A stretch of 64,000 nucleotides of DNA from Candidatus Pacearchaeota archaeon (lineage in GTDB: Archaea; Nanobdellota; Nanobdellia; Pacearchaeales; GW2011-AR1): NCBI GenBank assembly GCA_041651235.1, contig JBAZJQ010000001.1, positions 302,449 through 366,448 of the forward strand, in the 5' to 3' direction. The notes beneath the pieces were generated by a model that had not been told where the DNA came from, ran no database searches, and was given only the letters and a program-made list of their open reading frames with translations. The position numbers and the translations under genes are program-made. Positions 8,951 to 33,038 of the stretch are shown here, in pieces. The first letter of the stretch is position 1. The number at the start of each line of letters is the position of its first letter.

Positions 8951-9940
8951 ATGGTTAGAATAGCAATTGAAGCAAGTGAAAATGAAAATGGTTTTAATAA
9001 TGTTTTGAAAGGAGCAGAATTTGCTTTGAGCTCTAATCCAAGCTTGAGATTAATTTTAGTTGCAGGAGAAGATAGAGTTTTTAATAACTTGAAATTACCC
9101 CCTAATATAGAATTAGTTAGAACGAAATTTACTTATGATTCTAAGATTAAACCAAATCAAAAAACTAGTTCAATTCACAAAGCAATTGAAATGCATAAAA
9201 ATAACGAGGTTGATGCAGTTATTTCCCCTGGAGACACAAGAGGAGCAGTTAGGTTTTCTTACCAGCTATTGGGGTTAATGAAGAATGTTTTAAGTCCTGC
9301 AATTCCCACTCACTGGCCAAGAAAAAATGTAATGTTAGATTCTGGAGCGAATCCCGAATCTAAACTTAACAATTTATATCAATATGCTATAATGGGGCAT
9401 AATTTTTCTAAATATTATTTGGGAGTTGAAAGTCCATTAATTAGTATTGTTACTAATGGCGTAGAAAGACAAAAAGGAAGTAGGGAGGCTAAAAAAGCAA
9501 AAAGATTAATAGATAGATTAAATGAAAGAGGATTTAATATTTATGAGGGATTTTTTGAAGGAACTTCTTATGCAGATTTAGACAGAGGAATTGTTGGAGT
9601 GATTGGAGGAGAAGAAGGAAATATTGCTTTAAAAATTGCAGAAACTGCATTAATGATCCCTTTAAAGATAATGAAAGAAGAGTTTATGAAACAAGGTTGG
9701 TTGAAAAAAGCATTAGGATACTGGGGAGTAAAAACTCCTTTAGCAAGATTAAAACAAATTTGCGATTATAGGAAATATGCTACTGCTCCTTTATTGGGAA
9801 TAAATGGAAATGTAATGATTTGTCATGGAAGATCTGATTCAGAAACAATTGCCAATGCGATTAAAATAACTGATAATTATCTTAAGGCAGGTGTTAATGA
9901 ACATTTAAGAGAAGATATGATTCAATATGGAAAAGTTTAA
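8951..9940 (+). CDS. plsX: PlsX-family phosphate acyltransferase-like protein
   Basis: Collinear with bacterial PlsX blocks: VISPGDTRGAV (cf. SAGNTGA), LDSGANPE (cf. LDLGAN), APLLGINGNVMICHGRSD (cf. LLGLRGTVIKSHG). Confidence 0.7.
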   Translation: MVRIAIEASENENGFNNVLKGAEFALSSNPSLRLILVAGEDRVFNNLKLPPNIELVRTKFTYDSKIKPNQKTSSIHKAIEMHKNNEVDAVISPGDTRGAVRFSYQLLGLMKNVLSPAIPTHWPRKNVMLDSGANPESKLNNLYQYAIMGHNFSKYYLGVESPLISIVTNGVERQKGSREAKKAKRLIDRLNERGFNIYEGFFEGTSYADLDRGIVGVIGGEEGNIALKIAETALMIPLKIMKEEFMKQGWLKKALGYWGVKTPLARLKQICDYRKYATAPLLGINGNVMICHGRSDSETIANAIKITDNYLKAGVNEHLREDMIQYGKV

Positions 9941-12487: not shown

Positions 12488-12620
12488 ATGGTGCATAAAA
12501 AATATATACAAACTTTCTTTAGAAAAGACAAGTTTGAACAAAGAATAACTTTTTCGATAAAAGTTAAATCAAAATCAAATATATTTTTATAATATAAAAA
12601 TGGTGCATAAAAAATATATA
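12488..12620 (+). mobile_element. hairpin element copy A, flanked by a 21-bp duplication of the host start-codon region
   Basis: ATGGTGCATAAAAAATATATA at 12488-12508 and again at 12600-12620. The intervening 91 bp shares its first ~70 nt with copies at 41728, 49180 and 50713. Confidence 0.75.
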
Positions 12621-17763: not shown

Positions 17764-19074
17764 ATGGCAAAACCTAAAATTAGAGATACATTTATTGATG
17801 AAGAAGCTAAATTAAAGAAAAAACTAGAAGATTTAGAAAGAAAGTATCGGGGAGAACCTGCAGAAGATAAGTTTGTTCAAGAAATAGAAAGAGATCCGAT
17901 TTCTGAAGTAATTCCTGCAGATACTTCTAATCCGAAAAAGTCAGAAGAAAATTCTAAACCTGAGTTTGAATCTTATGAGGAAGAATATGAGGATGAAGAT
18001 GAGGAGTATCCTGAGGAAGAGAAAAAAGCACCTCTTGAAAATGTTAAATTAATCGAGCCTGTTTCTATTAAAATTAAACCTGTTCAAATTAAACTAAAAG
18101 GAGATCCAAGACCAAGTGAAGCTGAAGTTCAAAGAATTGCAGACGCTATTTATAAAATAAAAAAAGAAATTTCCAAGGTTTTAATTGGACAAGAAGAAAT
18201 TGTAGATGGTTTAATTAGGGGGTTGATTTGTAATGGACATGTTCTTTTAGAGGGAATTCCGGGTATTGCAAAAACTCTTTCTATAAGAGCATTAGGTGCG
18301 GTTAGCGGATGTGATGTCAAGAGAGTTCAGTTTACAGTTGATTTGCTTCCAACAGATATTACCGGAATAACTTCTTATACTCCCCAAAAAGGATTTGAAG
18401 TAATAAAGGGGCCTATTTTTGCTAATTTTTTGATTGCCGATGAAATTAATAGAAGTCCTCCTAAAACTCAATCAGCGCTAATTGAAGGTATGCAAGAAAA
18501 GCAAGTAACCATTGGAAAAGAAAATTTTTCATTACCTAATCCTTTTTTTGTTATGGCAACTGAAAATCCTTTGGAAAATGCAGGAGTTTATCCTCTTCCA
18601 GAAGCTCAAATTGATAGATTTTTGTTTAAATTAATTATGAGTTATCCTAAGGAGGAAGAAGAAAGAGTAATCATGGAGAATAATATGACCTTGCAGAAGT
18701 TTGAAAATTTTAATATTAAGCCAGTTATAAAACCTAAAGATATATTGCATATGCAAGAAATAGTTAAGAAAGTTTATCTAGATAATAGCATTAAAACTTA
18801 TATTCTTGAAATAGTTAAACGAACAAGAAATAAAAAATTTCAAGATTCAGAGTATCTTGCTTATGGGGCTTCCCCAAGAGCAAGTATCGCTTTATTTATC
18901 GCAAGCAAAGCTAAAGCATTAATGGAGGGAAGAAATTATGTTATCCCTGAAGATGTTAAGAAAATTGCCTATGATGTATTAAGGCATAGGCTAATTTTAT
19001 CTTACAAAGCTACTCTTAAAAATATAAATCCTGATGATTTAATTAGAAATATTCTAAATGAAATTAAAGTCTAA
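17764..19074 (+). CDS. MoxR-family AAA+ ATPase with acidic N-terminal extension
   Basis: Walker A LLEGIPGIAKTL, Walker B LIADEINR, MoxR-type ATENPLE..G.YPLPEAQIDRF. GAGGAG upstream. Confidence 0.9.
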   Translation: MAKPKIRDTFIDEEAKLKKKLEDLERKYRGEPAEDKFVQEIERDPISEVIPADTSNPKKSEENSKPEFESYEEEYEDEDEEYPEEEKKAPLENVKLIEPVSIKIKPVQIKLKGDPRPSEAEVQRIADAIYKIKKEISKVLIGQEEIVDGLIRGLICNGHVLLEGIPGIAKTLSIRALGAVSGCDVKRVQFTVDLLPTDITGITSYTPQKGFEVIKGPIFANFLIADEINRSPPKTQSALIEGMQEKQVTIGKENFSLPNPFFVMATENPLENAGVYPLPEAQIDRFLFKLIMSYPKEEEERVIMENNMTLQKFENFNIKPVIKPKDILHMQEIVKKVYLDNSIKTYILEIVKRTRNKKFQDSEYLAYGASPRASIALFIASKAKALMEGRNYVIPEDVKKIAYDVLRHRLILSYKATLKNINPDDLIRNILNEIKV

Positions 19075-19981
19075 GATGGAAAGGCAATTGAATCTAGACA
19101 TTCCAGAAAGTGTAGCGGAGTTTGAAACTCTAATTAGAAAAGTTTTGCCTAAAAATATAATGTTCCAAATAATTTATGGGAAAGGATTGGAATTTGATGG
19201 TTATAGGTATTTTTTACCAATTGATGATGCAAGCAATATTGATTGGAAAGCAAGTGTCAGATCTGGTAAAATATTAATTAGAAAATATATCGAAGAAAGG
19301 GATTTTAAAATTATTTTTTTAGTTGATGTAAGTGAAAATATGGTTTTTGGTTCTACTAATAAATTAAAATGTGAATATGCTGCAGAGCTTGTTTCAGCAT
19401 TAGCTCATGTAATCCTTGGTGCGGGAGACAGAGTGGGTTTTTTCTTATTTAATAATGAAATTATAAAAAAAAGAGATCCGGGTTTTGGCAATAGGCAATT
19501 TAGTATTCTTGCTCAAGAATTATCGGATCCTATTAACTATGGGGGGGCTTGGGATTTGAATAAAGCTTTAGAGGAAGTTTTAGGGAGATTAGGAAAAGAT
19601 ACTACTATGGTTTTTATTGTTTCTGATTTTATTCGGTTAAATGATTCTAATAAAATGAATTTAAAGGGTTTAGCCTCTTTATTTGAGACAATTGCTTTAA
19701 TAATCAGAGACCCTTTAGATATTTCTTTTCCAGATATTAATAAAGAAATCGTTTTAGAAAACCCCGAATCAAGAGACCGAATTGTTGTAAATCCTCATGT
19801 AATTAAATATGCATATCAAATTCAAGCTATCGAACAATTAAATAAAACCAAAAATATTTTTAGAGATGCAAATATAGATTTTGCTGAATTTAAAACTAAT
19901 GTCCCATTTTCGTTAGATTTAGCTAATTTTTTAAAAGAAAGATCACAAAGGAGAGTTTATAAGAAAAATGATGTACATTAG
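19058..19981 (+). CDS. DUF58-family protein (MoxR partner, vWA-like)
   Basis: IDWKASVRSGKILIRKYIEERD and FLVDVSENMVFGS signatures. The real start may be the ATG at 19076, just after the MoxR stop. Confidence 0.85.
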   Translation: MKLKSKMERQLNLDIPESVAEFETLIRKVLPKNIMFQIIYGKGLEFDGYRYFLPIDDASNIDWKASVRSGKILIRKYIEERDFKIIFLVDVSENMVFGSTNKLKCEYAAELVSALAHVILGAGDRVGFFLFNNEIIKKRDPGFGNRQFSILAQELSDPINYGGAWDLNKALEEVLGRLGKDTTMVFIVSDFIRLNDSNKMNLKGLASLFETIALIIRDPLDISFPDINKEIVLENPESRDRIVVNPHVIKYAYQIQAIEQLNKTKNIFRDANIDFAEFKTNVPFSLDLANFLKERSQRRVYKKNDVH

Positions 19982-20888
19982 TTTTACGCATCCATTTTAT
20001 TTAATATTCTTATTTAGCATACCTCTGATTATCTTTTTACATTTTTTTAGTCTTAAAGCTATACGGGGTAATGCATTAAAATTTGCTAATTTTGAGGCCA
20101 TTGCAAGAGTAAAAGGAATAGATATTTTTTCTAAAAATATTTTCTTGTTATTTTTTGATATTCTCCTAGTAGTTCTGTTAGTCTTATCTCTTTCTGGGAT
20201 TAATTTACATAAAGAGGTAGATGCGAGTTCATTTTCATTTGTTATTGCTATTGATTCTTCACAGAGTATGAGTGCAAATGATATCTTACCTACTCGAATA
20301 GATGCTGCAAAAGAAACTGCAAAAACTTTCATAGATTCTTCCCCGTATGATTCTTCTATAGGGATTATTTCTTTTTCAGGAACTTCTAGTTTAGAACAGC
20401 AGATTACTAACAACAAACAGCTTCTTAAAACTGCAATTGATAATATCCAGCTAAGCAATACCGGAGGAACAGATATTTATGATGCAATTCTTTTTTCTTC
20501 AACTTTACTAACAAATGAGAAAAATAAAGGGGTTATTATTTTAAGTGATGGACAGATTAATACCGGAAATGTTTATGATGCAATTGAATATGCTAAAGAA
20601 AAAAATATCCTAGTTCATACAATTGCAATCGGAACTTTGGAAGGAGGAGAGACAATTTATGGTTTATCTAAAGTTGATGAAGAAAGTTTAAAGAGCATTT
20701 CTTATAACACCGGAGGAAAATTTTTTAGTGTTCAAAACAAAGCAGAATTAGAACAATCTTTTAAAGATATCATACAAGTAACTAGGAAAGTCGGAACAAT
20801 AGAATTAAATTTGTATATCCTTATGCTTTTAATTGTCTTATTTATTTTCAGAGGAATTTTAATAAGTATGAATAAAATTTTGTGGTAA
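19968..20888 (+). CDS. membrane-anchored von Willebrand factor A domain protein (BatA-like)
   Basis: Two N-terminal TMs, MIDAS DSSQSMS, GGTDIYDA, ILSDGQIN, C-terminal TM. Confidence 0.85.
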   Translation: MMYISFTHPFYLIFLFSIPLIIFLHFFSLKAIRGNALKFANFEAIARVKGIDIFSKNIFLLFFDILLVVLLVLSLSGINLHKEVDASSFSFVIAIDSSQSMSANDILPTRIDAAKETAKTFIDSSPYDSSIGIISFSGTSSLEQQITNNKQLLKTAIDNIQLSNTGGTDIYDAILFSSTLLTNEKNKGVIILSDGQINTGNVYDAIEYAKEKNILVHTIAIGTLEGGETIYGLSKVDEESLKSISYNTGGKFFSVQNKAELEQSFKDIIQVTRKVGTIELNLYILMLLIVLFIFRGILISMNKILW

Positions 20889-21003
20889 ATTTATTGATAA
20901 AAGATTAAGACATAAGGGGAGCATATGAAGAGATCAAGGTGCGTTGGATTCTTAAAGGATATTTTAATGAACAAAATATTTATTGTTTACTCGGGATTAT
21001 ATT

Positions 21004-21432
21004 TTAATCAATTTCTTTATCAACTAGTTCTCTTAATTCTCTAATTATCTCATTAATTTCCTCGGCACTTATTTCTCTTCCTGAATATCTTATATCTGAC
21101 ATTAATTTACTGAAACCCGCAAAATCTATTTTATTTTGTTTTTCAAATTCTTCTGCAAGCTCTAAATAAGTTAGATTATACCCTAAATGATAATACTCTC
21201 TAAAAAACACTCTCATTAGCTTGTTAAGTTTCTCAAATTTTATTTCTGGATTTTCATTTGCAGTTTCTATTTCTTCTAGTTGTTTTTTATAGAATTTGAG
21301 TTTATTTTTTTCAAAAGATAGTTTTTGGTAAAGTTTCTTGTTTTTGGAATAAAAAAACCATGCAATTGCAATTAATATTATTAAGACTAATGCAAGCGGG
21401 ATTAGAATCTCTAGAGGAATAATCAATGCCAT
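21004..21432 (-). CDS. single-pass membrane protein, possibly DUF4381-like Bat-module accessory
   Basis: N-terminal TM, then a helical domain (LNKLMRVFFREYYHLGYNLTYLELAEEF). Placed convergently next to the MoxR/DUF58/vWA genes. Family assignment is tentative. Confidence 0.45.
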   Translation of the reverse strand: MALIIPLEILIPLALVLIILIAIAWFFYSKNKKLYQKLSFEKNKLKFYKKQLEEIETANENPEIKFEKLNKLMRVFFREYYHLGYNLTYLELAEEFEKQNKIDFAGFSKLMSDIRYSGREISAEEINEIIRELRELVDKEID

Positions 21433-21507
21433 GTTAAGGAGTAGTGTTAAGATTTTAAAAAAGTATCTGTTGATTAGTTATTTAAAGAATAGATCCCTTT
21501 AGATTTT

Positions 21508-22440
21508 ATGGAAAAAAGAGGACAGACCAGTGTTTTAACAATTATTTTAATAGTGCTTATTTCTATAACTGCAGTGATAATTCTTTGGAATGTAGTTTCT
21601 TCTATACTTCAAGATAAAACTGCCCAGATTGATTCTTCGGTTTTAACTAATAACTTAGGTATTAAAGAAATTGATTTATTTGTAACTGGGCTTTTAAAAA
21701 TCACTCTTCAAAATACCGGTAAGGGAGAGATTAATGAATTAAAATTTGTTTTTTATGATATCTATGGCAGGAGTCATATAGAAAATAGAACCGATTCTTT
21801 AAAAGAATTAGAAACAAAAGCTTATTCTTTTAATCCTATTCCCAACTTTGGTAAACTACAAAAAATTTCTGTTTATCCGGTTTCAAATAATAATCTTGGA
21901 GTAGAAGTTAGCAGCGAGGCTAAAGGTATATTTAATGTCCCAAAAGATTTAATTTCCTGGTGGAGATTTGAAGATGCAAATGATTTTGTAGGGAATAATG
22001 AGGGGCAATTGATGGGAGTCATTGCTAATGGCGAGCTATCCGGAGCAGGTTATTTTGAGGTTCAGAATAATTTAAATTTAAATAAAGAAATGGCAATTAG
22101 TTTTTTTATCTCCCCTTCTGCTAATGGAATTATTTTTGAGAAAGGAGATAATTATCAGGGAGAAATAATTGGAAATAAAATAAGATTTAGCCCCTGGAAT
22201 TTAGAAAGTGAAGAATTGAATTTTAATGACTGGAACCATGTCGTAATAACTATGAATAGTCTTGGAACTTATATTTATATTAATGGAAATTTAGCTGAAA
22301 CTGGAAGTTTAGCAAATTTGATTTTGAATGAAAACTCTTTGAAAATATATGGAATTAATAAAATTGATGAGTTTATGATTTTTAATAGAAGTTTAGTTTC
22401 TTCTGAAGTTTCAAATATTTATAATAATCTTAAGAGATAA
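21508..22440 (+). CDS. type IV pilin-like signal peptide fused to a LamG (concanavalin A-like) domain
   Basis: MEKRGQ-TSVLTIILIVLISITAVIILW (class III signal pattern). C-terminal LamG_3 pattern: LISWWRFEDANDFVGNNEG, WNHVVITMNSLGTYIYINGNL, IDEFMIFNRSLVSSEVSNIY. Confidence 0.75.
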   Translation: MEKRGQTSVLTIILIVLISITAVIILWNVVSSILQDKTAQIDSSVLTNNLGIKEIDLFVTGLLKITLQNTGKGEINELKFVFYDIYGRSHIENRTDSLKELETKAYSFNPIPNFGKLQKISVYPVSNNNLGVEVSSEAKGIFNVPKDLISWWRFEDANDFVGNNEGQLMGVIANGELSGAGYFEVQNNLNLNKEMAISFFISPSANGIIFEKGDNYQGEIIGNKIRFSPWNLESEELNFNDWNHVVITMNSLGTYIYINGNLAETGSLANLILNENSLKIYGINKIDEFMIFNRSLVSSEVSNIYNNLKR

Positions 22441-22578
22441 ATTTGAATTTTATTTATTAGTTTTTATTAATCGATTTTATTTGAATGAGTTATACACACA
22501 TACTAAGTATTATATACTTAGTTTATAGTAAGCTTTATAAGGTATATTTACATACATATTAAGTAATAAAATTATTAC

Positions 22579-22802
22579 TGTGTGTGAGACTTAAAAGTGG
22601 TGAGTGAAAATTGTAGTTAGAAATACTAATCAGAGAAGCTTAGAGAAAAATTTAATTGAAATTCTTAATCATAATTATTTTTGTTTTAAATTCCGGGACA
22701 GGTCAGTCTCACACACAATCCCTGCTTGGCCTGTCCTTTTTTCATTTTTATTTAAATTCTCCGGGGGGCCAGTCTCACACACACAATCACTTGGCTCCCT
22801 GG
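22579..22802 (+). promoter_or_regulatory. structured leader / candidate ncRNA: two tandem GC-rich hairpins plus an upstream complement of their loops
   Basis: Hairpin 1 is GGACAGGTC (22696-22704) / GGCCTGTCC (22728-22736). Hairpin 2 is CCGGGGGGCC (22761-22770) / GGCTCCCTGG (22793-22802). Both loops begin AGTCTCACACACA. TGTGTGTGAGACT at 22579-22591 is their exact complement. Confidence 0.55.
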
Positions 22803-22812
22803 TTTTTGTAAA

Positions 22813-25800
22813 ATGAATGAAAAAATAAGAAAACTAGAAGAGAGAAAACTGAAATTATTAAAAAATATAGACTATACTAAAAAGAAAAAGCAAGAGATAA
22901 TTGATTTTACTCAGAAGCTAGTTGGCGAATATATAAAGGGAAGAATTTCAAGAGCTCAATACGAGTCTCAGTTGAGCAAAACATTGAATAATAAGACTCC
23001 TGAACAGTGGGTTAGGTATTATGAGGAATACATAGAAAGTTATGAAAAACAAATTGATATTTGTGACAAAGAAATTAAAAAAGAAAAATCAAGAAGAATA
23101 AACAATAAAACTGTTTCTGTTTTGCTTATTGGAATTGTTTTAGTTTCTTTGATATTATTTATTTTTTCAAGTTATTTTTTTGGACCTGCAATTATAAATA
23201 AATTTTCAGGAATTTCTCAAGGAACCCAGACTAGTTTAAGCCAGGCTCAAAATGAAATTCAAACTCCGGAACTTCTTCCTGAACAAGCTATTCCAGCGGA
23301 GGAACTTGCTTTAACAGGAGTTTTCATGAATGGGCAAGATATTTCTTCTTCTGTAAAACAATTTCCAGCTGTTGCAGGAATGCCAGTAAGGTGGAAAGCA
23401 AAAGTTGATTTAAATGAAAATAGTGCTTTAGTTCTTCCAAATGAAGCAGAAAATATTGTTGTAAAAGAAAATGGAAAAGAAGTTACAAATGAAATCTCTG
23501 TTGATAAAAAGAGTTTTTTAGGTATTTTTAATAAAAGAACGGAAGTTTCTGTTACAGATTCAGATAATTATGAAATTAATTACGAAACTCCTGCACCTCA
23601 AATTAGCGCAGAGAATTTCGAAAATCGAGGAGCAATTAAAATTAGCGGACCGGATAATTTAGGATATACTAATGTTTTAAGTTATGTGGAAATTCCCGGA
23701 CAATTAAAAATGTCTGAAATTAATAAATTAAAGTTTTATTGGATTAAAAATGGAATAAGAACAGAACATAAATATGTCGCTTATGATTTAAATGAAGATG
23801 GATTTGTAGATACTATTGAATGGATAACTCCTCATTTGTCTGAACAAACCTTTGAGTGGATAATTGAAATTTCCAATGCAGAACATTTAGATTCTAATAA
23901 AGAATTTATTTCAGATATTTATGAGCAAGTTAAAGAACAAGATGATATTTGGAGCGAGCAAATAAATAATAATGAATATGTTAGAGTTAGATTCAGGCAA
24001 GCGTTAGATAACACAAGAGATATTACTATTTATGCAAGGAAAACAGGTTCAGATGAATCTGAAAAATCAACAATTGAAGTTTATAGTGAAAATGGAAATA
24101 ATTTAATTGCAAGATTTGAAAATATTAATCAAGAAAATTGGTATAAAATTTATTTAAATAATTTACCTGGGGGAGAAAGTTATGATGTTTTTGATTTGAA
24201 GATAATTGGAAATGTAGAATTTGATTATATTGTTGATCCGATTGTTATCCCTTCATATTCTGAACAATTAATTTCTGAAGGAAATTTTTATCATTTAAAT
24301 ATTTCAAATTCTGCTCCTTATAACCAATTATATCTTTACCATAATTTTGATGTTGATGGAACGAATATTCCTTCTTGGGATAACAAAGGAACTCCTGATA
24401 GCACCTTCGGTGCAGTTTATAACTCTTCGGGCCTATATGGGGGGGCGAGAACATTTAATGGAAACACTTATTTGAGCAATTTACGTACTGAATTACAGTT
24501 TAGTAATCCTGGGCAATATACCTGGATGATGTGGATTAAAAGAAGTTCTTTAACAAATAAAGAGGCGCTATTTAATTTTGCATTTTCAAGAGCATGGGAT
24601 GCTGGAGGAAGTATTACTATCGGTTCTGTTTTAGAAGATGATAAACTTTATTTTAATAATTTATACGGGGGAGATTATATTCGTTCAAGTGGAACAATTG
24701 AGGGTGGTTGGACTCATGTGGCTGTTAGTTATAATAATGGAGCAATTGCACTTTATATTAATGGTAATCAAGACGGGAGTGGGACTTTAAACTGTATGGG
24801 TAGTGAAGGTTATGATTTAAATATTGGAGGAGATAGTTTCGGCGCCTTAGATTATAATGCAAATGAAGGAATTTATTTTAAAGGGGAGATGGATGAAGTT
24901 ATGGTTTTTAGAAGCGCATTAACTTCTACTCAAATCTCTGATATTTACAAAAACCAAAGCAATAGATTTATTATTTCAGGAAGCCAAAATTTTGGTAACC
25001 AAAGTCTTTTAAATATTTCTGGTTCTCCAATCAGTGTTCTGGGAGATTATAAAAATATTTCCAGTTATATTAACTTAAGTGTAGGATATTATACTGGCCA
25101 ATGGTATTCTACAAATACTCAAGTCTTTAATGGAGATAATTTATTTGATACTCATCCTCTTTCAACTAATTTAACTTTAAACTTTACATTTTATTCTGGG
25201 AGTAATAACGGAAACTATAATTTTTATTCTCCTATTTTATTTTCTGATGTGGATGTTAGTAAGGGGAGCGTAGATACTACTCCTCCTGCAATTAATTTTA
25301 CGTATCCTACTCCTGCAAATGCTTCTAAAATTTATGCTGATAATTTTGTTGTTAATGTAAGTGCAAGTGATGTTGGAAAAGGAGATAATAATATTTCTAC
25401 ATTTATTGATTTTAACAGAAGTTTAGTTGGTTGGTGGAGAATGGATGATGTTAATGGAAATATTGTTTATGACAATTCAAATTATGGAAATGATCTGAGT
25501 GTGAGAAATGGTGCTTATCAAACAAATGGATTTTTAGGAAATGGATTTGGATTTGATGGAGTAGATGATGTTTTGGTGAATAATTCTAAAATTAATGGAC
25601 TTGCTATCGGGGGGGGAAATGCAACTATTTCTGTTTATGCAAAAATAAATCAAGATTATGATGTTTTCAAAGGAATTTTTGAATATGGTAGGGCGAGTGG
25701 AGATTCTTATGGAATTTGGAGAAATGCTTCAGATACATTTCATTGCAGATTTGGGTATGGGGGAGCTGCTAATTGGCAAGATACTATAGATAGTGTTCAG

Positions 25801-28800
25801 ATGTTTTATCCTAATCAATGGTATCATATATTGTGTACTATGCAGGACATTGGAAATGGAAATTTTGAATATAAAATTTATATTAATGGAAAATTGGATA
25901 ATACTAAAGTCAGAATTCCTAATAGTTGGATATCTCTTGAAAAATCCTTAGCTATTGGTGCCTATGGTTATGGTGATGGAGAGCTTTTTAATGGAACAAT
26001 AGATGAAGTAATGATTTTTAAGAGAGTATTAAATGAAAATGAAATTAAAACTCTTTATGCAAATTATACTGCTAAAAACTTAAGTGTTAGTTTTAATAAT
26101 TTGAAAATTGGGAATAATTATACCTTTAAAGCATATTCTCAAGATATTAAAGGAAATGTTAATTTAACTGAAAAAAGAGAAGTTGAAATTTCTGCTCCTG
26201 GAGATTTAATTGCAGATTGCAGTGGAACAGACCCTTACACAAATCAAGATTGGATTATTAAAGATAATACTCTTTGCGAGAATGTTAATATTAAATTATC
26301 TCAAGATAGGATACTCGCAATGTATGAGGGAGGAAATCTTACTCTAAAAAATGTTAGTTTGACTTTGGATCCGAGTTCAGATAAATTTTTGATTTATGTC
26401 GAGGATAATTCTAAAATAAATATAACTAATTCTAAGATTAATTCAACTGGAAATCGTTATGCGATTCGTGCAAATAATAATAGTAATACTTATATCTCTG
26501 ATTCTATTTTTTATGATATGGGAGCATCTAATGCTCAACCATACCAAGGGGTTATAAATGCCTATGATAATGTTTATGTTCTTATAAAAAATAACTCCTT
26601 TTTTAATATCGGAGGCATTTTTAAATATTCAGGAGCATTAACAGGACCTACCCAGAGAATCTTTCTTTATAATAATCAAGTTATTAATTATAGTTCTGAT
26701 TGTATCCGAAGTTATTATGGAAAAGGGATTGTTGTAGAAAATTTATCTTGTTATAATGGGGCATTATATGGTTCGGGAATTAGACTTCAATATTATAATT
26801 CTAATTTAACTTTTAAAAACATAAATATCACTAATATTATTGATGACGGGATTGTTATTTTAGATGGGGCAGATAATTTAAGTTTTGAGAATATTAACTT
26901 AATTAATGTAAGTGATCTGAGACATCAAGGATACCATGGTTCAGGGGTTAATCTTTATCAAAATACCGGAAATATAACTGATATTTTATTTAAGAATATC
27001 TTTTCTACTGTAAATGATATAACTTCGGAAGACGGCATTGATGAAGCAGTTCAAATAGGTAATGGGGGTGTAGGGAAAATTCTTAATGTTACTTTTATTG
27101 GCTGTAATTTTTCTTCTGTAGGAAGTTATCCTGTTGGGGTAAATGCCAAAGATTCTTATATTAATTTCATAAATACTAGCCTTAACAGTGATTTAGGAAA
27201 TAAGTTTAGTTATGAATCAACATCTAAAAATGTTACAATTAATGTTAAATGGTATTATTGGGGATATGCTAAAGATGAAATTGGTTTTCCGGTTCAAGGA
27301 GTGAATATTTCAGCCTTTAATAAATCTAATAATTTACAATTTAGTAGTTTAACTAATGGAAACGGATTAGTTAACAAAGAATTAATTGATTTTATAGATT
27401 TTGTAAACGGGTCTGGATCTCAAAATAGAAGTTATTATTCAAATTATACTATTAATGCAAGTTATCTGGATTATCCTAATAAAACTATTTCTCATAATAT
27501 GACTTATGAACATAATGTCTATGACGAATTTGTGTTTTTAATTCCAGATAGACATGCTCCTGCAATTAATTTTACTTATCCTACTCCTGCAAATAATTCT
27601 ATTGTTTACACAGATAATTTTGTTGTTAATGTAAGTGCAAGTGATATTGGAAGAGGAGACAATAATATTTCTACATTTATTGATTTTAACAGAAGTTTGG
27701 TTGGTTGGTGGAGAATGGATGATTTTTGTGTTGTTTGTGGGAAGAATGGTAGAGGAGATTATCTTTCTTACTGGAAATTGGATGATAGTTTTTCAGATGG
27801 AGTTGCAAATGATGAGAAAGGAATTAATAACGGAAAAATTTATGGAGCTACCCAAATTATTGACCCTCAAAGAGGAGAAGTTGCAAGATTTGATGCAAGT
27901 GCTTCTAATTATATTAATGTGGGTAATAATTCAAATTTAGAGATTAGTAATGCGATTAGTATCTCTGGTTGGATTAAATTAGAAGGAACTGCAGTTACTC
28001 AAAGGCTTGTTTCTAAAAAAGTTAGTTCTGGGGCTCAAACTGGGTTTGAAGTTGAAATTTATACTTATAGTTTTGACCCTCGTTTAAGATTCTATGCTCA
28101 GGGAAATACTTACGCAAATGCTTACTATAATTGGAATTCCAATCCGGGATGGCATCATATTGTTGCTGTTGCTAATGGTAATGAAGGGAGATTGTATGTT
28201 GATGGAGTGGATAGAACAACAGATAGTACTATAGATCCTATTTTATCTAATAATCTAAATTTAACTATTGGAAGACAAAGTGGTACTGGTGCAGCTCCTT
28301 TTGAGGGATTAATGGATGATATCAGAATCTATGATTTTGCACTAACTCCGGGAGAAGTTTTAGAGATTTATAATTCAGAATCTAACTGCGATCCGGGTTT
28401 TTGTGATTATTCTGATTATGGAACTAATTGCTTAGTTGTTGGAGGAGCAACTCAAACAAGTGGAAAAATAGGAAAGGCACTTAATTTCCCCTTGAATAGT
28501 TTTTTGAATTGTACTAATGATTTAGACTTTAATATTACTAAGGAGATTACTCTTTCTTTGTGGGTTAATGCCCCTTCTCTCCCAGCAGACAACCAGGAAA
28601 TTTCAATATTAAGAAATGAAGAATCAGGGTATAATTTAATTATTGGAAATGAAGAAGTTGATGGAATTATTGCTCCAATTAGATTTGAGATAAGAAATGC
28701 ATCAAGTGGAACAAATCAATATCAAAAAATATATAGTAATTCTGATATCTCACCCAATACTTGGTATAATGTAATCGCAACTTACGATGGAAATTTAATG

Positions 28801-30543
28801 AAATTGTATCTTAATGGAAATTTAAATTCTCAAAAATTAGTTAGTGGAAAAATCTTAAATGATAATTCTGGATTAATTATTGGAAAGGGTTCTTTTAGTG
28901 ATTTGGCTACTGGACTTGTTGATGAGGTTATGATTTTTAAAAGAGCATTGGATGAAAATGAAGTTAAAGCCCTTTATGCAAATAAAACATTGGATAACTT
29001 AAAAACTAGTTTTACTAATTTATCTGCAGGAAATTATACGATGAAAGCATATTCTCAAGATAGTTATGGGAATATTAATTCAACTGAAGAAAGAAGTGTT
29101 AAAGTAACAGGACTTGTTGCTCCGGAAATTCTTTATATTACCCCGATGAGTGAAGTAGTTTATCCTGATGAAGATAATGGGGAGGGAGCTACTGCCACTA
29201 GAATTTTAGATAAGATTATTTTTGGGGTTACTGATGGAAATGGAGCTATTGATTTACCGAATAGCGGGATCATAGCTTCAGGATATATTGAACATACTCC
29301 TAATACTCCTTATGGTTATACTGATGTGGCTCATACCCGAAGATATTTTAATGGGGTGGACTGTGCTTTTAGAGGACTGATTGAAGAAGGAGGAAAAGAA
29401 TATTCTTGTGATGTGAATATTTATTATTATGATGATGCTGTTGACTGGAGTGTTAATATTACTAGTTTCAAAGATTTATCGGGATTAGAAGCTTCAAATC
29501 TTCCTTATTCTATGAATGGAGCTTTTAAAATTGGAGAGAGAAAGGGAGTTTATTTGTCAGAAAACATTTTAGATTTTGGGAATGTGAATAAATCTGTTCT
29601 TCCTGTTGAAGCATTAACCCCGATGATTATAAAAAATACTGGAAATAGGAATGTCGATGGAATTAGTAAATTACTCCAATTTAGAGGAAGAGATTTAACT
29701 GGAGAAACCTATACCGAACAAAAAATTTCTACTGAAAATTTCCAAGTTAATTTAGATAATCCCACTCCCTGTAGTCCTAGCAGTCAGTTTATAACTTTAA
29801 CTGATAAAATTGATAATCCTGCTGGAACTTTATTTAATGGTTTGATTTTACATAATGGGGATTTAGTTTTAGGAGATGCTCAAAATAATGTTTATTTTTG
29901 CTTAGCTAGTTTAATTGATACTCCTTTGAACAGTCAAACATATTCTACTATTCAAACAGGAGATACTTGGGAAATTAATGCAATTAGCTTATTTTTGATT
30001 AAGTTAATTAGATTTAATTTAGGAATAATTTTATTTGCAGTTGGAATAAGAATAAAGAGAAAAAAGAAGTTAGTTACAGAAGACAGATTATTAGATGTTC
30101 TAGAATCTAAACTAGAAGATAAATATGGGATTAATATTGAAGAATTGCTTTCTGAAATTAAAAAGAAAAAAGAAAAAGAAATCGAAGTTCCTTTGATAAT
30201 CTTTAGAAAAAGTATCGGGCCTGCTGAAATCTTATGTAAATACCTTAGAGAAAATAAAAAATTAAGGTTTAGTGAAATTGCTAAGCTAATTAATAGAGAT
30301 GAAAGAACTGTTTGGATTAATTACAGAAATGCTCAGAAGAAAATAAAAGGAAAGATAGAAATACAAAAAAGTTTAGTTATTCCAATATCTGTTTTGTCAA
30401 ATAAAAAATTGAGTATTTTAGAATCAATAATAAATTATCTAAAAGAAAAAGATTTGAAGAATTCTGAAATAGCAGAAATATTAAACAAAGACCAAAGAAA
30501 TATCTGGACATTGTATTCAAGAGTTAAGAAAAAAATAAAATAG
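22813..30543 (+). CDS. giant (2576 aa) LamG / beta-helix surface protein with cytoplasmic double-HTH tail
   Basis: N-terminal coiled coil plus TM. Four LamG_3-like modules (each ending DEVMxF.R.L...E...LY). PbH1-type beta-helix repeats (NITNSKINSTGNRYAIRANNNSNTYISDSIF...). C-terminal TM, then two LuxR/sigma-r4-like HTH motifs. Confidence 0.88.
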   Translation: MNEKIRKLEERKLKLLKNIDYTKKKKQEIIDFTQKLVGEYIKGRISRAQYESQLSKTLNNKTPEQWVRYYEEYIESYEKQIDICDKEIKKEKSRRINNKTVSVLLIGIVLVSLILFIFSSYFFGPAIINKFSGISQGTQTSLSQAQNEIQTPELLPEQAIPAEELALTGVFMNGQDISSSVKQFPAVAGMPVRWKAKVDLNENSALVLPNEAENIVVKENGKEVTNEISVDKKSFLGIFNKRTEVSVTDSDNYEINYETPAPQISAENFENRGAIKISGPDNLGYTNVLSYVEIPGQLKMSEINKLKFYWIKNGIRTEHKYVAYDLNEDGFVDTIEWITPHLSEQTFEWIIEISNAEHLDSNKEFISDIYEQVKEQDDIWSEQINNNEYVRVRFRQALDNTRDITIYARKTGSDESEKSTIEVYSENGNNLIARFENINQENWYKIYLNNLPGGESYDVFDLKIIGNVEFDYIVDPIVIPSYSEQLISEGNFYHLNISNSAPYNQLYLYHNFDVDGTNIPSWDNKGTPDSTFGAVYNSSGLYGGARTFNGNTYLSNLRTELQFSNPGQYTWMMWIKRSSLTNKEALFNFAFSRAWDAGGSITIGSVLEDDKLYFNNLYGGDYIRSSGTIEGGWTHVAVSYNNGAIALYINGNQDGSGTLNCMGSEGYDLNIGGDSFGALDYNANEGIYFKGEMDEVMVFRSALTSTQISDIYKNQSNRFIISGSQNFGNQSLLNISGSPISVLGDYKNISSYINLSVGYYTGQWYSTNTQVFNGDNLFDTHPLSTNLTLNFTFYSGSNNGNYNFYSPILFSDVDVSKGSVDTTPPAINFTYPTPANASKIYADNFVVNVSASDVGKGDNNISTFIDFNRSLVGWWRMDDVNGNIVYDNSNYGNDLSVRNGAYQTNGFLGNGFGFDGVDDVLVNNSKINGLAIGGGNATISVYAKINQDYDVFKGIFEYGRASGDSYGIWRNASDTFHCRFGYGGAANWQDTIDSVQMFYPNQWYHILCTMQDIGNGNFEYKIYINGKLDNTKVRIPNSWISLEKSLAIGAYGYGDGELFNGTIDEVMIFKRVLNENEIKTLYANYTAKNLSVSFNNLKIGNNYTFKAYSQDIKGNVNLTEKREVEISAPGDLIADCSGTDPYTNQDWIIKDNTLCENVNIKLSQDRILAMYEGGNLTLKNVSLTLDPSSDKFLIYVEDNSKINITNSKINSTGNRYAIRANNNSNTYISDSIFYDMGASNAQPYQGVINAYDNVYVLIKNNSFFNIGGIFKYSGALTGPTQRIFLYNNQVINYSSDCIRSYYGKGIVVENLSCYNGALYGSGIRLQYYNSNLTFKNINITNIIDDGIVILDGADNLSFENINLINVSDLRHQGYHGSGVNLYQNTGNITDILFKNIFSTVNDITSEDGIDEAVQIGNGGVGKILNVTFIGCNFSSVGSYPVGVNAKDSYINFINTSLNSDLGNKFSYESTSKNVTINVKWYYWGYAKDEIGFPVQGVNISAFNKSNNLQFSSLTNGNGLVNKELIDFIDFVNGSGSQNRSYYSNYTINASYLDYPNKTISHNMTYEHNVYDEFVFLIPDRHAPAINFTYPTPANNSIVYTDNFVVNVSASDIGRGDNNISTFIDFNRSLVGWWRMDDFCVVCGKNGRGDYLSYWKLDDSFSDGVANDEKGINNGKIYGATQIIDPQRGEVARFDASASNYINVGNNSNLEISNAISISGWIKLEGTAVTQRLVSKKVSSGAQTGFEVEIYTYSFDPRLRFYAQGNTYANAYYNWNSNPGWHHIVAVANGNEGRLYVDGVDRTTDSTIDPILSNNLNLTIGRQSGTGAAPFEGLMDDIRIYDFALTPGEVLEIYNSESNCDPGFCDYSDYGTNCLVVGGATQTSGKIGKALNFPLNSFLNCTNDLDFNITKEITLSLWVNAPSLPADNQEISILRNEESGYNLIIGNEEVDGIIAPIRFEIRNASSGTNQYQKIYSNSDISPNTWYNVIATYDGNLMKLYLNGNLNSQKLVSGKILNDNSGLIIGKGSFSDLATGLVDEVMIFKRALDENEVKALYANKTLDNLKTSFTNLSAGNYTMKAYSQDSYGNINSTEERSVKVTGLVAPEILYITPMSEVVYPDEDNGEGATATRILDKIIFGVTDGNGAIDLPNSGIIASGYIEHTPNTPYGYTDVAHTRRYFNGVDCAFRGLIEEGGKEYSCDVNIYYYDDAVDWSVNITSFKDLSGLEASNLPYSMNGAFKIGERKGVYLSENILDFGNVNKSVLPVEALTPMIIKNTGNRNVDGISKLLQFRGRDLTGETYTEQKISTENFQVNLDNPTPCSPSSQFITLTDKIDNPAGTLFNGLILHNGDLVLGDAQNNVYFCLASLIDTPLNSQTYSTIQTGDTWEINAISLFLIKLIRFNLGIILFAVGIRIKRKKKLVTEDRLLDVLESKLEDKYGINIEELLSEIKKKKEKEIEVPLIIFRKSIGPAEILCKYLRENKKLRFSEIAKLINRDERTVWINYRNAQKKIKGKIEIQKSLVIPISVLSNKKLSILESIINYLKEKDLKNSEIAEILNKDQRNIWTLYSRVKKKIK
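25283..25449 (+). repeat. intragenic direct repeat, copy 1 (167 bp)
   Basis: Matches 27557-27723 at a constant offset of 2274 bp, with about a dozen mismatches by eye. Encodes PPAINFTYPTPAN...NFVVNVSASD.G.GDNNISTFIDFNRSLVGWWRMDD. Confidence 0.85.
27557..27723 (+). repeat. intragenic direct repeat, copy 2 (167 bp)
   Basis: See copy 1. The last ~107 bp differ at only about 4 positions. Confidence 0.85.
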
Positions 30544-30595: not shown

Positions 30596-31585
30596 ATGAA
30601 AAGAGAAAAAAGAGTGTATTTAGGAATTGCTGTTTTAGGTATTGTGATTATTTCTTTGAGTTTAGTAAGTGCAGGATGGTTTAGTGATTTATTAAAATTT
30701 GGTTCTGATGATAAAAATTTAGAAGGAGAATTGCCTAATGCTAATTTTGATACTAAAGTAATAATAAAAGATGATACTCCTCCTCAGATAGTTTTTGTAA
30801 GTGATGTTAAAGGAGAAATAGCAGCTCCAGCAAATAATCCTAAACTTAGATCAAAACCTGGAGGAGATACCCCTCTTAATTTTACTTTTTTAGCTCAACA
30901 AGGAGGGCCTCAACCAGGAAATTTAGAAATTGTACCAGGTCTTGCTCCTACAACAGGGTATTTTAATAAATCTGGAGAAGCTCAAAGAAATATTATCTCT
31001 TGTTATATTTTGGGGGTAGTTAGTTTTGGTGCAGGAACTGCTGTTAATTATTCTTGTAAGGTTAATATGTCTTATTATGATGCGCCCGGTATTTGGAGTA
31101 TAAATGTAACTATCCAAGATAATAATAATCAAAAAGGAAGTAATAGTACTAAAACATTTACAGTACAAACTACTTCTTCAGCAAGTACTTCTGCTAATGC
31201 TTATTTAAATTGGACTGGTTTAAAATCTACAAATACGAATATCCCTTCAGATAATAATTTAAGTATCTTAAATGAGGGAAATGTAGCTTATGCTTCTGTT
31301 TCTATGAATGGAACAAATTTGACAGGACAAGGAGCTCACCCTGAACAATTTATTTTAGTTAATCGGTTTAAAGGAGATGTTGGGGCAGGATGTGCTGGAG
31401 GAAATGCGCTTGAAAATAACCAAATAGTCTCTTTTGGGACTTTTTCTGTACCTAGGAGTACAACAGGTACAGATTCAAAAAAAGATTTACCTTTTTGTAT
31501 AATTGATTTTGCAGGATCTGGAATTTTAAGTAATCAAGAATATAAAAGTATAAGACAATGGGAGATTATTTTCCCAATTTCATAA
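30596..31585 (+). CDS. secreted / anchored surface protein (hypothetical)
   Basis: N-terminal signal anchor (VYLGIAVLGIVIISLSLVSAG). Ser/Thr/Asn-rich mature part with many NxS/T sequons. Confidence 0.65.
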   Translation: MKREKRVYLGIAVLGIVIISLSLVSAGWFSDLLKFGSDDKNLEGELPNANFDTKVIIKDDTPPQIVFVSDVKGEIAAPANNPKLRSKPGGDTPLNFTFLAQQGGPQPGNLEIVPGLAPTTGYFNKSGEAQRNIISCYILGVVSFGAGTAVNYSCKVNMSYYDAPGIWSINVTIQDNNNQKGSNSTKTFTVQTTSSASTSANAYLNWTGLKSTNTNIPSDNNLSILNEGNVAYASVSMNGTNLTGQGAHPEQFILVNRFKGDVGAGCAGGNALENNQIVSFGTFSVPRSTTGTDSKKDLPFCIIDFAGSGILSNQEYKSIRQWEIIFPIS

Positions 31586-31586
31586 A

Positions 31587-32168
31587 ATGGTAAATAAAAA
31601 TAAAATAAAAATGAGAATCATGCCTTTAGTTGGAACTTTAATTTTAGTTTTAACACTAAATTTAGTTTTTGCGTTTAGCCCGATTTTAGGATTTAGTAAT
31701 GATGCTCCTTTAACTGTTTATGCGGGAGAATCTAAAGAAATGGCTTATAATATCTATGCTAATCCTGAAGAAGGAAATTTGAAAATTAAAGCAGTAATAA
31801 CTGAGGGAGGCAATATTGCTTCTATAATGGATAGTAATAATATTTATGACGTATCTAATGCTAACCCCGGAATAACCAATATTAAAATTAAGGTTCCTTC
31901 AAGTGCGACTATTGGAACTGAATATACTGTGAAATTATTATTTTCTGATGAAACTCCTGCAACTGGAACAGGAACAGTTAGTTTAAATGTTCAGGCAACT
32001 ACTTCCTTTAAAGTTAAAGTTGTAGAACCAACAGAACAACCGGTTGCTGAAGGAACAAGCATCTGGTGGATTATACTTGCTATTGTTGTTATAATTGCAG
32101 TTATTGCAGTTATTTATTTCCTTGTAAAAGGAAATGAACAGTCTGTTAAGAAAGTTTCTAAGAAATAA
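31587..32168 (+). CDS. small surface protein with signal peptide and C-terminal TM anchor (paralog 1)
   Basis: Signal LVLTLNLVFA, C-terminal IWWIILAIVVIIAVIAVIYFLVKG. Paralogous to 32469..33038 (GTEYTVKLLF vs GTEYYVKIKF). Confidence 0.7.
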   Translation: MVNKNKIKMRIMPLVGTLILVLTLNLVFAFSPILGFSNDAPLTVYAGESKEMAYNIYANPEEGNLKIKAVITEGGNIASIMDSNNIYDVSNANPGITNIKIKVPSSATIGTEYTVKLLFSDETPATGTGTVSLNVQATTSFKVKVVEPTEQPVAEGTSIWWIILAIVVIIAVIAVIYFLVKGNEQSVKKVSKK

Positions 32169-32468
32169 TTATAAAAAAAGATTTTAGTAATATAAATATT
32201 AAAACAATGAGAAATCTGTTGTTAGCTTGATGTCAGCATTATTATTGTTTGTTTTGATAATACATAAATATTACTTATAGTTTATTGTTTAATTTATTAA
32301 GATATAAGATATGTAGATGAGAAGATTAAGAGATTTAGGATATTTTGCTTTGAATTAAGAATATAATTTTAGTGAAAACAGATGACTTGTTATTTGTCCT
32401 AATAAATTATAGATATCTTCTTCATTTTAAATAGTTAAGAATTTAAACTAAGTTATCTTTTTTAATTT

Positions 32469-33038
32469 ATGAAAAAGAGTTGGATATTCATTTTATTAAT
32501 TAGTTTTGTTAGTTTGATTAGTTTAGTTAATGCTGTTTCAGTAGGAGGACCTTATTCTGAAGATAGACCATTAATAATCTCTCCTGGTGAAACAAAAATA
32601 TTTAATTTAAGTTTGCAAAATAGGGCCGGAGAGGTTGATGTTAAATTTAGAGCAGAAATTATAAATGGTTCAGATATAGTTAGCTTTATAGACTCTAATC
32701 CTGAATATTTTATTGCTGCATCTCCCACTAGTGAGGCCTTTGTAAACCTTAAAGTTAAAGCCCCTAAAGCAAAAAATGGAACAGAATATTATGTTAAGAT
32801 TAAATTTCAATCTATACCGTTAGATACTGATAAGCCTGGAATGGTTCAAATAGCAGTTGGTTTATCCTGGGAATTTAATGTAATCCTCATAGAAAGTCCT
32901 GAATATAAGGAGGCTCAACGAATTAGGCTATTATGGATAATTTTTTCTCTTGCGTTAGTTCTAGCGGTTATAATTGTTATTTATTTGCTTGTAAGGGGTT
33001 ATGACTCTGATAAGAAGTCTTTTTCTAGATATTCATAA
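32469..33038 (+). CDS. small surface protein with signal peptide and C-terminal TM anchor (paralog 2)
   Basis: Same architecture and shared blocks with 31587..32168. Confidence 0.7.
   Translation: MKKSWIFILLISFVSLISLVNAVSVGGPYSEDRPLIISPGETKIFNLSLQNRAGEVDVKFRAEIINGSDIVSFIDSNPEYFIAASPTSEAFVNLKVKAPKAKNGTEYYVKIKFQSIPLDTDKPGMVQIAVGLSWEFNVILIESPEYKEAQRIRLLWIIFSLALVLAVIIVIYLLVRGYDSDKKSFSRYS

Follow-up and report, generated by a model that had tools for sequence, protein, structure and literature searches.

A giant surface protein of a DPANN archaeon with a double helix-turn-helix tail: a candidate membrane-tethered autoregulator

The 64,000-nucleotide (nt) stretch of a Candidatus Pacearchaeota archaeon analyzed here (GenBank assembly GCA_041651235.1, contig JBAZJQ010000001.1, positions 302,449 to 366,448), which we call the window, encodes in one uninterrupted frame a giant protein of 2,576 amino acids that ends in two helix-turn-helix (HTH) modules. 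These modules follow a predicted transmembrane (TM) segment, recur in a large family of DPANN proteins, and are encoded in operons whose promoters carry a family-specific DNA box. On balance, we lean toward reading the giant protein as a membrane-tethered autoregulator, a type so far undescribed in archaea, with DNA binding as the predicted activity of its tail.

The 164-residue tail consists of two ∼52-amino acid modules that are 38% identical to each other (pairwise E = 1e-11). On its own, the tail matches the sigma region 4 HTH of Pfam (PF08281/PF04545), namely the family Sigma70_r4_2, over two stretches, scoring 30.7 bits against a gathering score of 25.7. An AlphaFold2 model of the tail based on 23 homologues (mean predicted local distance difference test score (pLDDT) of 90.2) features two N-terminal helices, followed by two helical HTH units, each introduced by a short strand. 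When single modules were compared with solved structures using Foldseek, they superposed on region 4 of extracytoplasmic function (ECF) sigma factors (SigR, SigE, SigW, SigH, and AlgU) with a root-mean-square deviation (rmsd) of 1.2–3.3 Å over 45–50 residues (probability 0.96–1.0) and on the archaeal repressor EnfR (PDB code 8hnp) with an rmsd of 0.6–1.7 Å over 43–46 residues at 37–40% identity. EnfR also ranked first in a profile search of the PDB sequences (E = 0.006), in which the aligned part comprised EnfR residues 17–51 only. The top match of the whole-tail model was the bipartite DNA-binding domain of Tc3 transposase, a poor fit (rmsd of 17.6 Å), indicating that the two modules are oriented differently than in Tc3. 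Because profile, fold model, and solved structures concur, the two HTH motifs, which the original prediction had read from the sequence alone, are confirmed. Its placement of a TM segment, the run RIKRKKK, and a two-copy tail also stood, apart from the start at position 30050, which is one base off the codon boundary. The tail carries a net charge of +13, and a six-frame translation of the window, searched with phmmer and a hidden Markov model (HMM) of the module, contained no further copy.

As to the class of HTH, the likeness to sigma-70 region 4 that had been suggested is borne out by the Sigma70_r4_2 score, whereas the alternative suggestion of a LuxR/GerE pattern is not (GerE, PF00196, 14.3 bits versus 23.5). 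HTH_5 and HTH_24 were likewise below their thresholds, and NCBIfam returned only weak sigma, EnfR, and Tfx matches to the tail. The full-length Tfx/EnfR models scored far below their cutoffs (NF053597, EnfR, 17.2 bits versus 260; PRK03975, 14.1 versus 115), and Trans_reg_C, the domain expected of ToxR-type regulators, had no match in the giant protein. Membership of the tail in the LuxR/GerE, Tfx/EnfR, and ToxR families is thus ruled out by curated thresholds. TIGR02937 reached 17.8 bits against a cutoff of 42.9, and Sigma70_r2 had no match in the giant protein or its tail, nor in the precomputed Pfam lists of 28 relatives. Genes for DP1 and DP2 of archaeal DNA polymerase D and for diphthamide synthase lie in the window; the host is therefore an archaeon, which has no bacterial RNA polymerase core. 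Given the absence of region 2 and the archaeal host, the tail is not a sigma factor.

A Kyte–Doolittle scan of the giant protein revealed two main hydrophobic regions, residues 100–123 (with a weaker overlapping shoulder) and 2390–2412, which flank a putative ectodomain ending in a conserved juxtamembrane motif (..VYFCL..L.SQTYST...W.I.). Besides four LamG domains, the ectodomain includes a putative beta-helix region. It contains 63 N-x-S/T glycosylation sequons, compared with 37.3 ± 5.2 expected from its composition; the tail contains none, with 0.9 expected. The same pattern holds across 82 family members, in which ectodomain sequons are enriched twofold (3,558 versus 1,722 ± 37 with shuffled composition) and tail sequons are at expectation (92 versus 99 ± 9). 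Together with the cytoplasmic nature of the soluble paralogues described below, this difference places the tail inside the cell. Hydropathy, positive-inside charges, and family-wide sequon statistics thus support a predicted topology with both termini in the cytoplasm and ∼2,266 residues outside, in agreement with the original prediction.

To define the family, a word-index search with the tail yielded 28 short proteins, whose alignment (A1) seeded an exhaustive HMMER search. This search retrieved 2,250 cluster representatives at E ≤ 1e-3, 2,095 at E ≤ 1e-10, and 1,306 at E ≤ 1e-30, and also met a public protein (P0086) of the same length as the giant open reading frame. We examined the architecture of 170 family sequences, including 60 of at least 400 amino acids (best matches; longest, 5,919 amino acids). 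All 60 long proteins carry their modules at the very C terminus, 0–17 residues from the end, and all possess two or four modules, except for one with three detected; a few short or fragmentary sequences among the 170 have an incomplete third module. The ∼52-residue modules are preceded by helices with the pattern ..KYGI..ELL. Ahead of the tail, the fused proteins share a pre-anchor motif (..E.LYFCL..VP..L..Q.YST...W.I..), a hydrophobic run, and a polybasic stretch. The same tail is thus found on many other giant surface proteins of the lineage, as a survey suggested by the original prediction now demonstrates.

The N-terminal domain of the giant protein is conserved in the fused family as well (phmmer E values from 2.7e-05 down to 5.4e-29). 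This ∼100-residue domain (..EW[IL].YYD.Y..) and the following TM1 occur across the fused proteins, and in some of them the domain is tandemly duplicated (e.g. P0098, P0170, P0120, L013, and L016). Because N-terminal domain and tail are both kept, the two cytoplasmic ends of the fused proteins are conserved, and the ectodomain is the variable part. The N-terminal domain was modeled with a pLDDT of 93.5 as a helical hairpin (helices 3–41, 47–57, and 63–123) that continues into TM1. Foldseek matched it to generic coiled-coil hairpins only, and Pfam gave nothing convincing (Sigma_reg_N in one member, E = 0.034, not significant). A role as an anti-sigma-like domain was dropped, as neither search returned an informative match. 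A word-index search with the N-terminal 125 residues found no matches, and its homologues were seen only by phmmer against family members.

A scan of one genome per GTDB species with a closer alignment (A2) identified 46 loci, all of them in DPANN archaea, whose records name nearly all of them Woesearchaeota, Pacearchaeota, or Nanoarchaeota. These loci comprise 28 fused genes and 18 stand-alone genes of 171–192 codons. One of the fused genes (L025) is split by an assembly gap: its apparent 150-residue stand-alone gene (3407–3859 of that locus) is the tail of a fused gene, interrupted by a run of N, and the sequence just upstream of the gap encodes the anchor, the polybasic stretch, and ..LLEVLDKELKEKYN. 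Short family proteins on short contigs consequently need to be checked before they are counted as stand-alone. Conversely, an artificial fusion was rejected as an explanation of the giant gene, as its architecture recurs in dozens of independent assemblies. Viral contigs contained no relatives of the tail, neither Pfam nor NCBIfam holds a dedicated model for the family, and a literature search found no description of this architecture. The family thus appears to be large, restricted to DPANN archaea, and undescribed; as a large family and as an architectural variant of membrane-tethered regulators, it is new.

In its second form, the family consists of soluble proteins of 150–280 amino acids, encoded directly next to a membrane-anchored surface protein. 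No hydrophobic segment is present in 40 of 41 complete-looking stand-alone proteins, indicating that the HTH domain operates in the cytoplasm. We analyzed the gene linkage at 21 true stand-alone loci. At 20 of them, the next gene begins between −53 and +13 nt from the stop codon of the HTH gene, usually with an overlap of 1–26 nt. All 21 downstream products feature an N-terminal basic stretch followed by a TM segment, most are rich in sequons, and 14 exceed 1,000 amino acids, with examples such as a 3,723-residue Beta_helix/NosD protein (the longest) and a 1,266-residue S8 peptidase with LamG. Several of these surface proteins (at L049, L042, L052, L054, L009, and L001) share a conserved C-terminal module, ..PPPF.VEN.GNI..NV...G..YF ... 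DLDWH..NDFL..L...VP..E.PG.K.STITF, that resembles the juxtamembrane module before TM2 of the fused proteins. This resemblance suggests that the fused and the stand-alone architectures share an ancestral ectodomain end.

Both operon types carry related boxes in their promoters. A k-mer comparison between the 250-nt regions preceding 20 fused genes and 421 other upstream regions of the same loci showed ACATATTAA in 9 of the 20 (1/421 controls) and TACTTAATA in 11 of the 20 (5/421 controls). Sixteen loci with otherwise dissimilar flanks align in a common layout, in which Box A1 (CAYACAWATTAAGTA) is followed after 5–7 nt by TACTTAA, after ∼10 nt more by TTTATAA, and after another ∼12 nt by Box A2. 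By analogy with other archaeal promoters, we take TTTATAA to be the putative TATA box, and the usual distance from there to the start presumably places the transcription start at Box A2. The arrangement TTAAGTA-N5–7-TACTTAA, an imperfect palindrome, occurs in 7 loci. One further locus (L029) shows a degenerate copy of the A1–TATA–A2 layout, and two (L056 and L016) were uninformative. Scanning both strands of 752,686 nt (∼1.5 Mb in total) for Box A with at most one substitution gave 33 matches. Of these, 32 are on the coding strand upstream of fused genes, mostly in pairs 53–56 nt apart, and the remaining one lies upstream of a stand-alone HTH gene. Boxes A1 and A2 of the giant gene are the only two matches in the window. 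The DNA target originally proposed, a leader with hairpins and CA repeats at 22579–22802, was not supported: the conserved boxes lie upstream of it, at 22495–22565, where they flank the TATA box.

The core ACA-N5-AGTA was read off the fused set and then applied to the stand-alone set as an independent sample. Upstream of the stand-alone genes it occurs 1.26 times per 200 nt, whereas 179 control regions of these loci give 0.00 (p = 9e-17). If the 3′ half is relaxed to AG[TA]A, the density rises to 2.05 versus 0.02, and at least two copies are present in 12 of 19 stand-alone regions but in none of the 179 controls. Versions of the core with N4 or N6, or on the reverse strand, showed little or no enrichment in this set. 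The stand-alone loci typically possess 3–5 boxes upstream of a TATA-like element at about −30, with spacings of 20–21, 36, and 41 nt. The presence of these boxes in the promoters of fused and stand-alone genes lends indirect support to the transcription-factor reading that had been proposed.

Both operon types have in common only an HTH pair, an encoded surface protein, and the boxes, and the simplest reading is therefore that the HTH pair reads the boxes. The pair would be a sequence-specific DNA-binding unit, a single-chain reader with two HTHs that recognizes oriented ACA-N5-AGTA boxes, and the tail itself, rather than another factor, would bind them. A 12-bp box with conserved ends approximately one helical turn apart could accommodate two HTHs bound to a single face of the double helix. 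Archaeal activators use sites upstream of TATA, and repressors use sites over the start. In the fused genes, one box with its inverted half-site would be bound just upstream of TATA and the second over the predicted transcription start; because of these two positions, the giant protein could exert feedback on the promoter of its gene. It would do so once complete and inserted in the membrane, while still tethered, which would be feasible in cells of a few hundred nanometers. In the stand-alone form, the soluble HTH pair would be the product of the first gene of the operon and the membrane-anchored surface protein that of the second, with the boxes upstream of TATA in a typical activator position.

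Several points weigh against tethered autoregulation. Another regulator might recognize the boxes. That the short anchors of many relatives span the membrane is an assumption: the median length of their hydrophobic run is 10 residues if charged ones are strictly excluded and ∼14 if counted permissively (e.g. WTIRILMVALAF-RRKRKK), and the run often ends in a proline before the polybasic stretch, and only a minority, including the window protein, possess a long anchor of 25–30 residues with internal lysine or arginine (23–27 residues in the window variant). Short leucine-rich segments with flanking lysines can integrate via Sec translocons. In the context of the full-length protein, the Sigma70_r4_2 score decreases to 21.6 bits, which is below the gathering threshold. 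Taken by itself, the short core motif shows no enrichment over the whole window (8 matches versus 6.0 expected); only the full 15-mer and its promoter context are specific. The Box A consensus was derived post hoc, and its transfer to the stand-alone set is the sole independent test. Finally, a comparison of recognition-helix differences with the AGTA and AGAA box variants between subgroups revealed no convincing link, and the groups differ at many positions.

The boxes might alternatively be reached only by a tail that has been set free. As with Notch, SREBP, or RseA, the tethered tail would be idle until host contact or force leads to cleavage near the anchor, and the freed HTH pair would then act on the boxes. 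The unusually short anchors fit such a release, since they often feature proline, glycine, or asparagine beside the polybasic run (..VIPARRKK and ..FIPAAKRK; one asparagine and two glycines in the window protein), and residues of this type favor intramembrane cleavage in site-2 protease substrates. The soluble paralogues show that the HTH domain can work untethered, and the ectodomain is adhesin-like with its LamG domains. However, the loci examined show no protease gene conserved beside the family, a search for a cleavage-site motif yielded none, and sensing by the ectodomain does not follow from any of our results. We consider signal-dependent release rather unlikely. More novel in content, and likewise doubtful in our view, is that the giant adhesin-like proteins serve DPANN episymbionts as Notch-like contact receptors, in which host engagement or pull alters the double-HTH tail or releases it via the unusually short anchor; the tail then reprograms the surface-protein operon via the boxes.

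A tail that docks to proteins and does not bind DNA would leave the boxes to another regulator; docking to a cytoplasmic partner was the alternative named in the original prediction. Its partner could be the N-terminal hairpin of the same or a neighboring protein, or an assembly or secretion factor. Sigma region 4 is bound by anti-sigma domains in a parallel manner, and such protein complexes (PDB codes 1or7, 6in7, and 3vep) are among the Foldseek matches. The joint conservation of both cytoplasmic ends in the fused family would also suit docking, and the overlapping, probably translationally coupled stand-alone genes would be consistent with a complex of fixed stoichiometry. Yet many partners encoded downstream of stand-alone genes expose only 6–15 cytoplasmic residues before their TM segment and thus offer little to dock to. 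The strongly basic charge of the tail, the restriction of shared features to HTH pair, surface protein, and boxes, and the DNA binding of the nearest solved relative, EnfR, also argue against pure docking, which we regard as improbable.

Very improbable, finally, is an extracellular tail, in which the hydrophobic stretch would not span the membrane and the HTH pair would bind environmental or host DNA, as might be imagined from the very short anchors of many relatives and the nucleic acid scavenging ascribed to DPANN archaea: the window protein possesses a 23-residue segment followed by 5 lysines or arginines in 7 residues, sequons are enriched in ectodomains and not in tails, 40 of 41 stand-alone homologues lack a hydrophobic segment usable as a signal peptide, and the boxes sit in the organism's own promoters.

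By analogy, a tethered autoregulator of this kind would resemble ECF sigma/anti-sigma operons and ToxR- or Notch-type tethered regulators in its logic, and EnfR and sigma region 4 in its fold. EnfR is a repressor of the Tfx family, and its sigma region 4-like HTH was shown experimentally to bind a pseudo-palindrome in a promoter (PMC10570040). Tfx/EnfR (PDB codes 8HNO and 8HNP) are likewise archaeal with an HTH like sigma-70 region 4, and 8hnp is the best PDB match by profile and by structure. Whereas EnfR combines one HTH with an acidic α+β domain and forms an X-shaped dimer (PMC10570040), the tail comprises two tandem HTHs in one chain, lacks the acidic domain, and is linked through a TM segment to a giant ectodomain. 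Two HTHs in a single chain that read adjacent parts of an asymmetric site are also known from MarA/AraC and from the bipartite domains of Tc3 and paired proteins, all of which belong to another HTH class.

With ECF sigma/anti-sigma operons, the family shares an HTH of the region 4 type, a gene order in which the regulator gene overlaps the following gene, whose single-pass membrane product has an extracytoplasmic domain, and boxes in its own promoter, which suggest autoregulation. In contrast to the region 2 plus region 4 of sigma factors, two region 4-like modules are present here, and in the window protein the regulator is joined covalently to the C terminus of the membrane protein. ToxR, CadC, and TcpP also join an extracytoplasmic and a cytoplasmic DNA-binding-type domain in one polypeptide, and membrane anchoring does not keep the known ones from binding DNA. 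They possess, however, an N-terminal winged HTH of the OmpR type, one TM segment, and a small periplasmic sensor, whereas the giant protein has a C-terminal pair of sigma region 4-type HTHs after TM2, two TM segments, and an ectodomain of ∼2,266 residues that is predicted to be glycosylated. In Notch, SREBP, and ATF6, similarly, a TM segment connects a large ectodomain of the adhesion type with a transcription module inside the cell, and SREBP also has two TM segments with both termini inside. There is no sequence relationship to these proteins, the host has no nucleus, and cleavage, which releases the module there, is only a candidate step here.

DPANN archaea have tiny genomes with few recognizable regulators, and how they sense and attach to their hosts is unexplained. 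At least 2,250 sequence clusters join the largest DPANN surface proteins to a DNA-binding-type module with a recognizable operator, which would offer a concrete route from the surface to gene expression; the box and its promoter architecture constitute a defined DNA probe. Sigma-70-like genes were reported to be prevalent in Woesearchaeota, in which no anti-sigma factors were found and the mechanism of control was unclear (Castelle et al. 2021; PMC8204110). If these genes correspond to the present family, as may be the case, they would encode double region 4-like regulators of surface-protein operons and no sigma factors. The names "sigma24 family protein" and "CsgD family regulator," which public relatives received automatically, would mislead. 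Notch-like contact receptors, if they exist here, would constitute a one-protein path from the cell exterior to a promoter in archaea and would also explain sigma-70 genes of Woesearchaeota without anti-sigma factors.

The coordinates of the giant gene, its domains, and its promoter elements are compiled in Table 1.

Table 1. Features of the giant gene and its flanks (positions in the window)
Feature	Positions	Strand	Remarks and basis
Box A1 (CACACATACTAAGTA)	22495..22509	+	Upstream copy of the family-specific box; core ACA-N5-AGTA
Inverted half-site TACTTAG	22515..22521	+	Together with Box A1 (3′ half), an imperfect palindrome
TTTATAA, putative archaeal TATA box	22534..22540	+	Between the boxes; conserved position in 16 aligned promoters
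Box A2 (CATACATATTAAGTA)	22551..22565	+	56 nt after A1; presumably overlaps the start of transcription
Long leader	22579..22808	+	5′ TGTGTGTGAGACT; two GC-rich hairpins at ∼22693–22745 and ∼22760–22808, each followed by a T-run
Giant gene	22813..30543	+	2,576 amino acids, uninterrupted 2,576-codon frame
N-terminal cytoplasmic helical-hairpin domain, residues 1–99	22813..23109	+	Conserved in the fused family
TM1/signal anchor, residues 100–123	23110..23181	+	Kyte–Doolittle 2.98; 7 lysines/arginines in the preceding 15 residues
Ectodomain, residues 124–2389 (∼2,266 residues)	23182..29979	+	4 Laminin_G_3 domains; rich in N-glycosylation sequons
TM2, residues 2390–2412, AISLFLIKLIRFNLGIILFAVGI	29980..30048	+	Hydropathy
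Polybasic stop-transfer RIKRKKK	30049..30069	+	Polybasic run conserved in nearly every fused protein
Two conserved helices ahead of the HTH modules (..LLDVLESKLEDKYGINIEELL..)	30079..30168	+	Also in stand-alone relatives
HTH module 1, residues 2459–2510	30187..30342	+	Module HMM, Pfam, AlphaFold2, Foldseek
HTH module 2, residues 2523–2574	30379..30534	+	Module HMM, Pfam, AlphaFold2, Foldseek, PDB profile search
Downstream gene, 329-amino acid secreted protein	30596..31585	+	Signal peptide ending ..LVSAGWFSD

Between promoter and start codon, the giant gene possesses a long leader that looks like a conserved attenuator-type RNA, an RNA-level element separate from the boxes. AGTCTCACACACA, the exact complement of the leader start TGTGTGTGAGACT, is present in the loops of both GC-rich hairpins, and this 13-mer occurs three times in the window, each time in the leader (0.03 expected). 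Analogous leaders are found in seven other long-leader loci (L013, L019, L020, L027, L034, L037, and L055); other leaders of the family start with AGGGTGTGT and contain ACACACCCT in a terminator-like hairpin. Rfam had no match to the leader, and the folding energy of the whole leader is not exceptional (z = −1.58).

Downstream of the fused gene, most of the 28 fused loci with downstream sequence encode a secreted protein of ∼300–350 amino acids whose signal peptide ends in ..SAG[FIW].DW... It is followed by proteins of ∼190–200 amino acids that have a signal peptide as well as a TM segment at the C terminus, a gene set that is found in the window (30596–33038, with the smaller proteins at 31587–32168 and 32469–33038), at L008 (1126–3609), and at ∼24 other loci. 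None of these proteins belongs to a Pfam family.

The window as a whole has a G+C content of ∼29%, and tRNA and Rfam scans of it found nothing. In otherwise archaeal surroundings, it encodes a bacterial-type PlsX (FA_synthesis, 161.8 bits) at 8951–9940, which agrees with reports of bacterial lipid genes in DPANN archaea. A second giant open reading frame of 1,700 amino acids (12600–17702) lacks both a significant Pfam domain and an HTH tail. The gene of the 2,576-residue protein is immediately preceded by a cluster at 17764–22440 that encodes a MoxR-type AAA ATPase, DUF58, VWA/BatA-like, and DUF4381 proteins (minus strand), and a 310-residue LamG protein. A MoxR/DUF58-VWA pair is also located near a stand-alone HTH gene (L005, 9955–12142), and the MoxR/DUF58-VWA genes and these surface proteins may be functionally connected.

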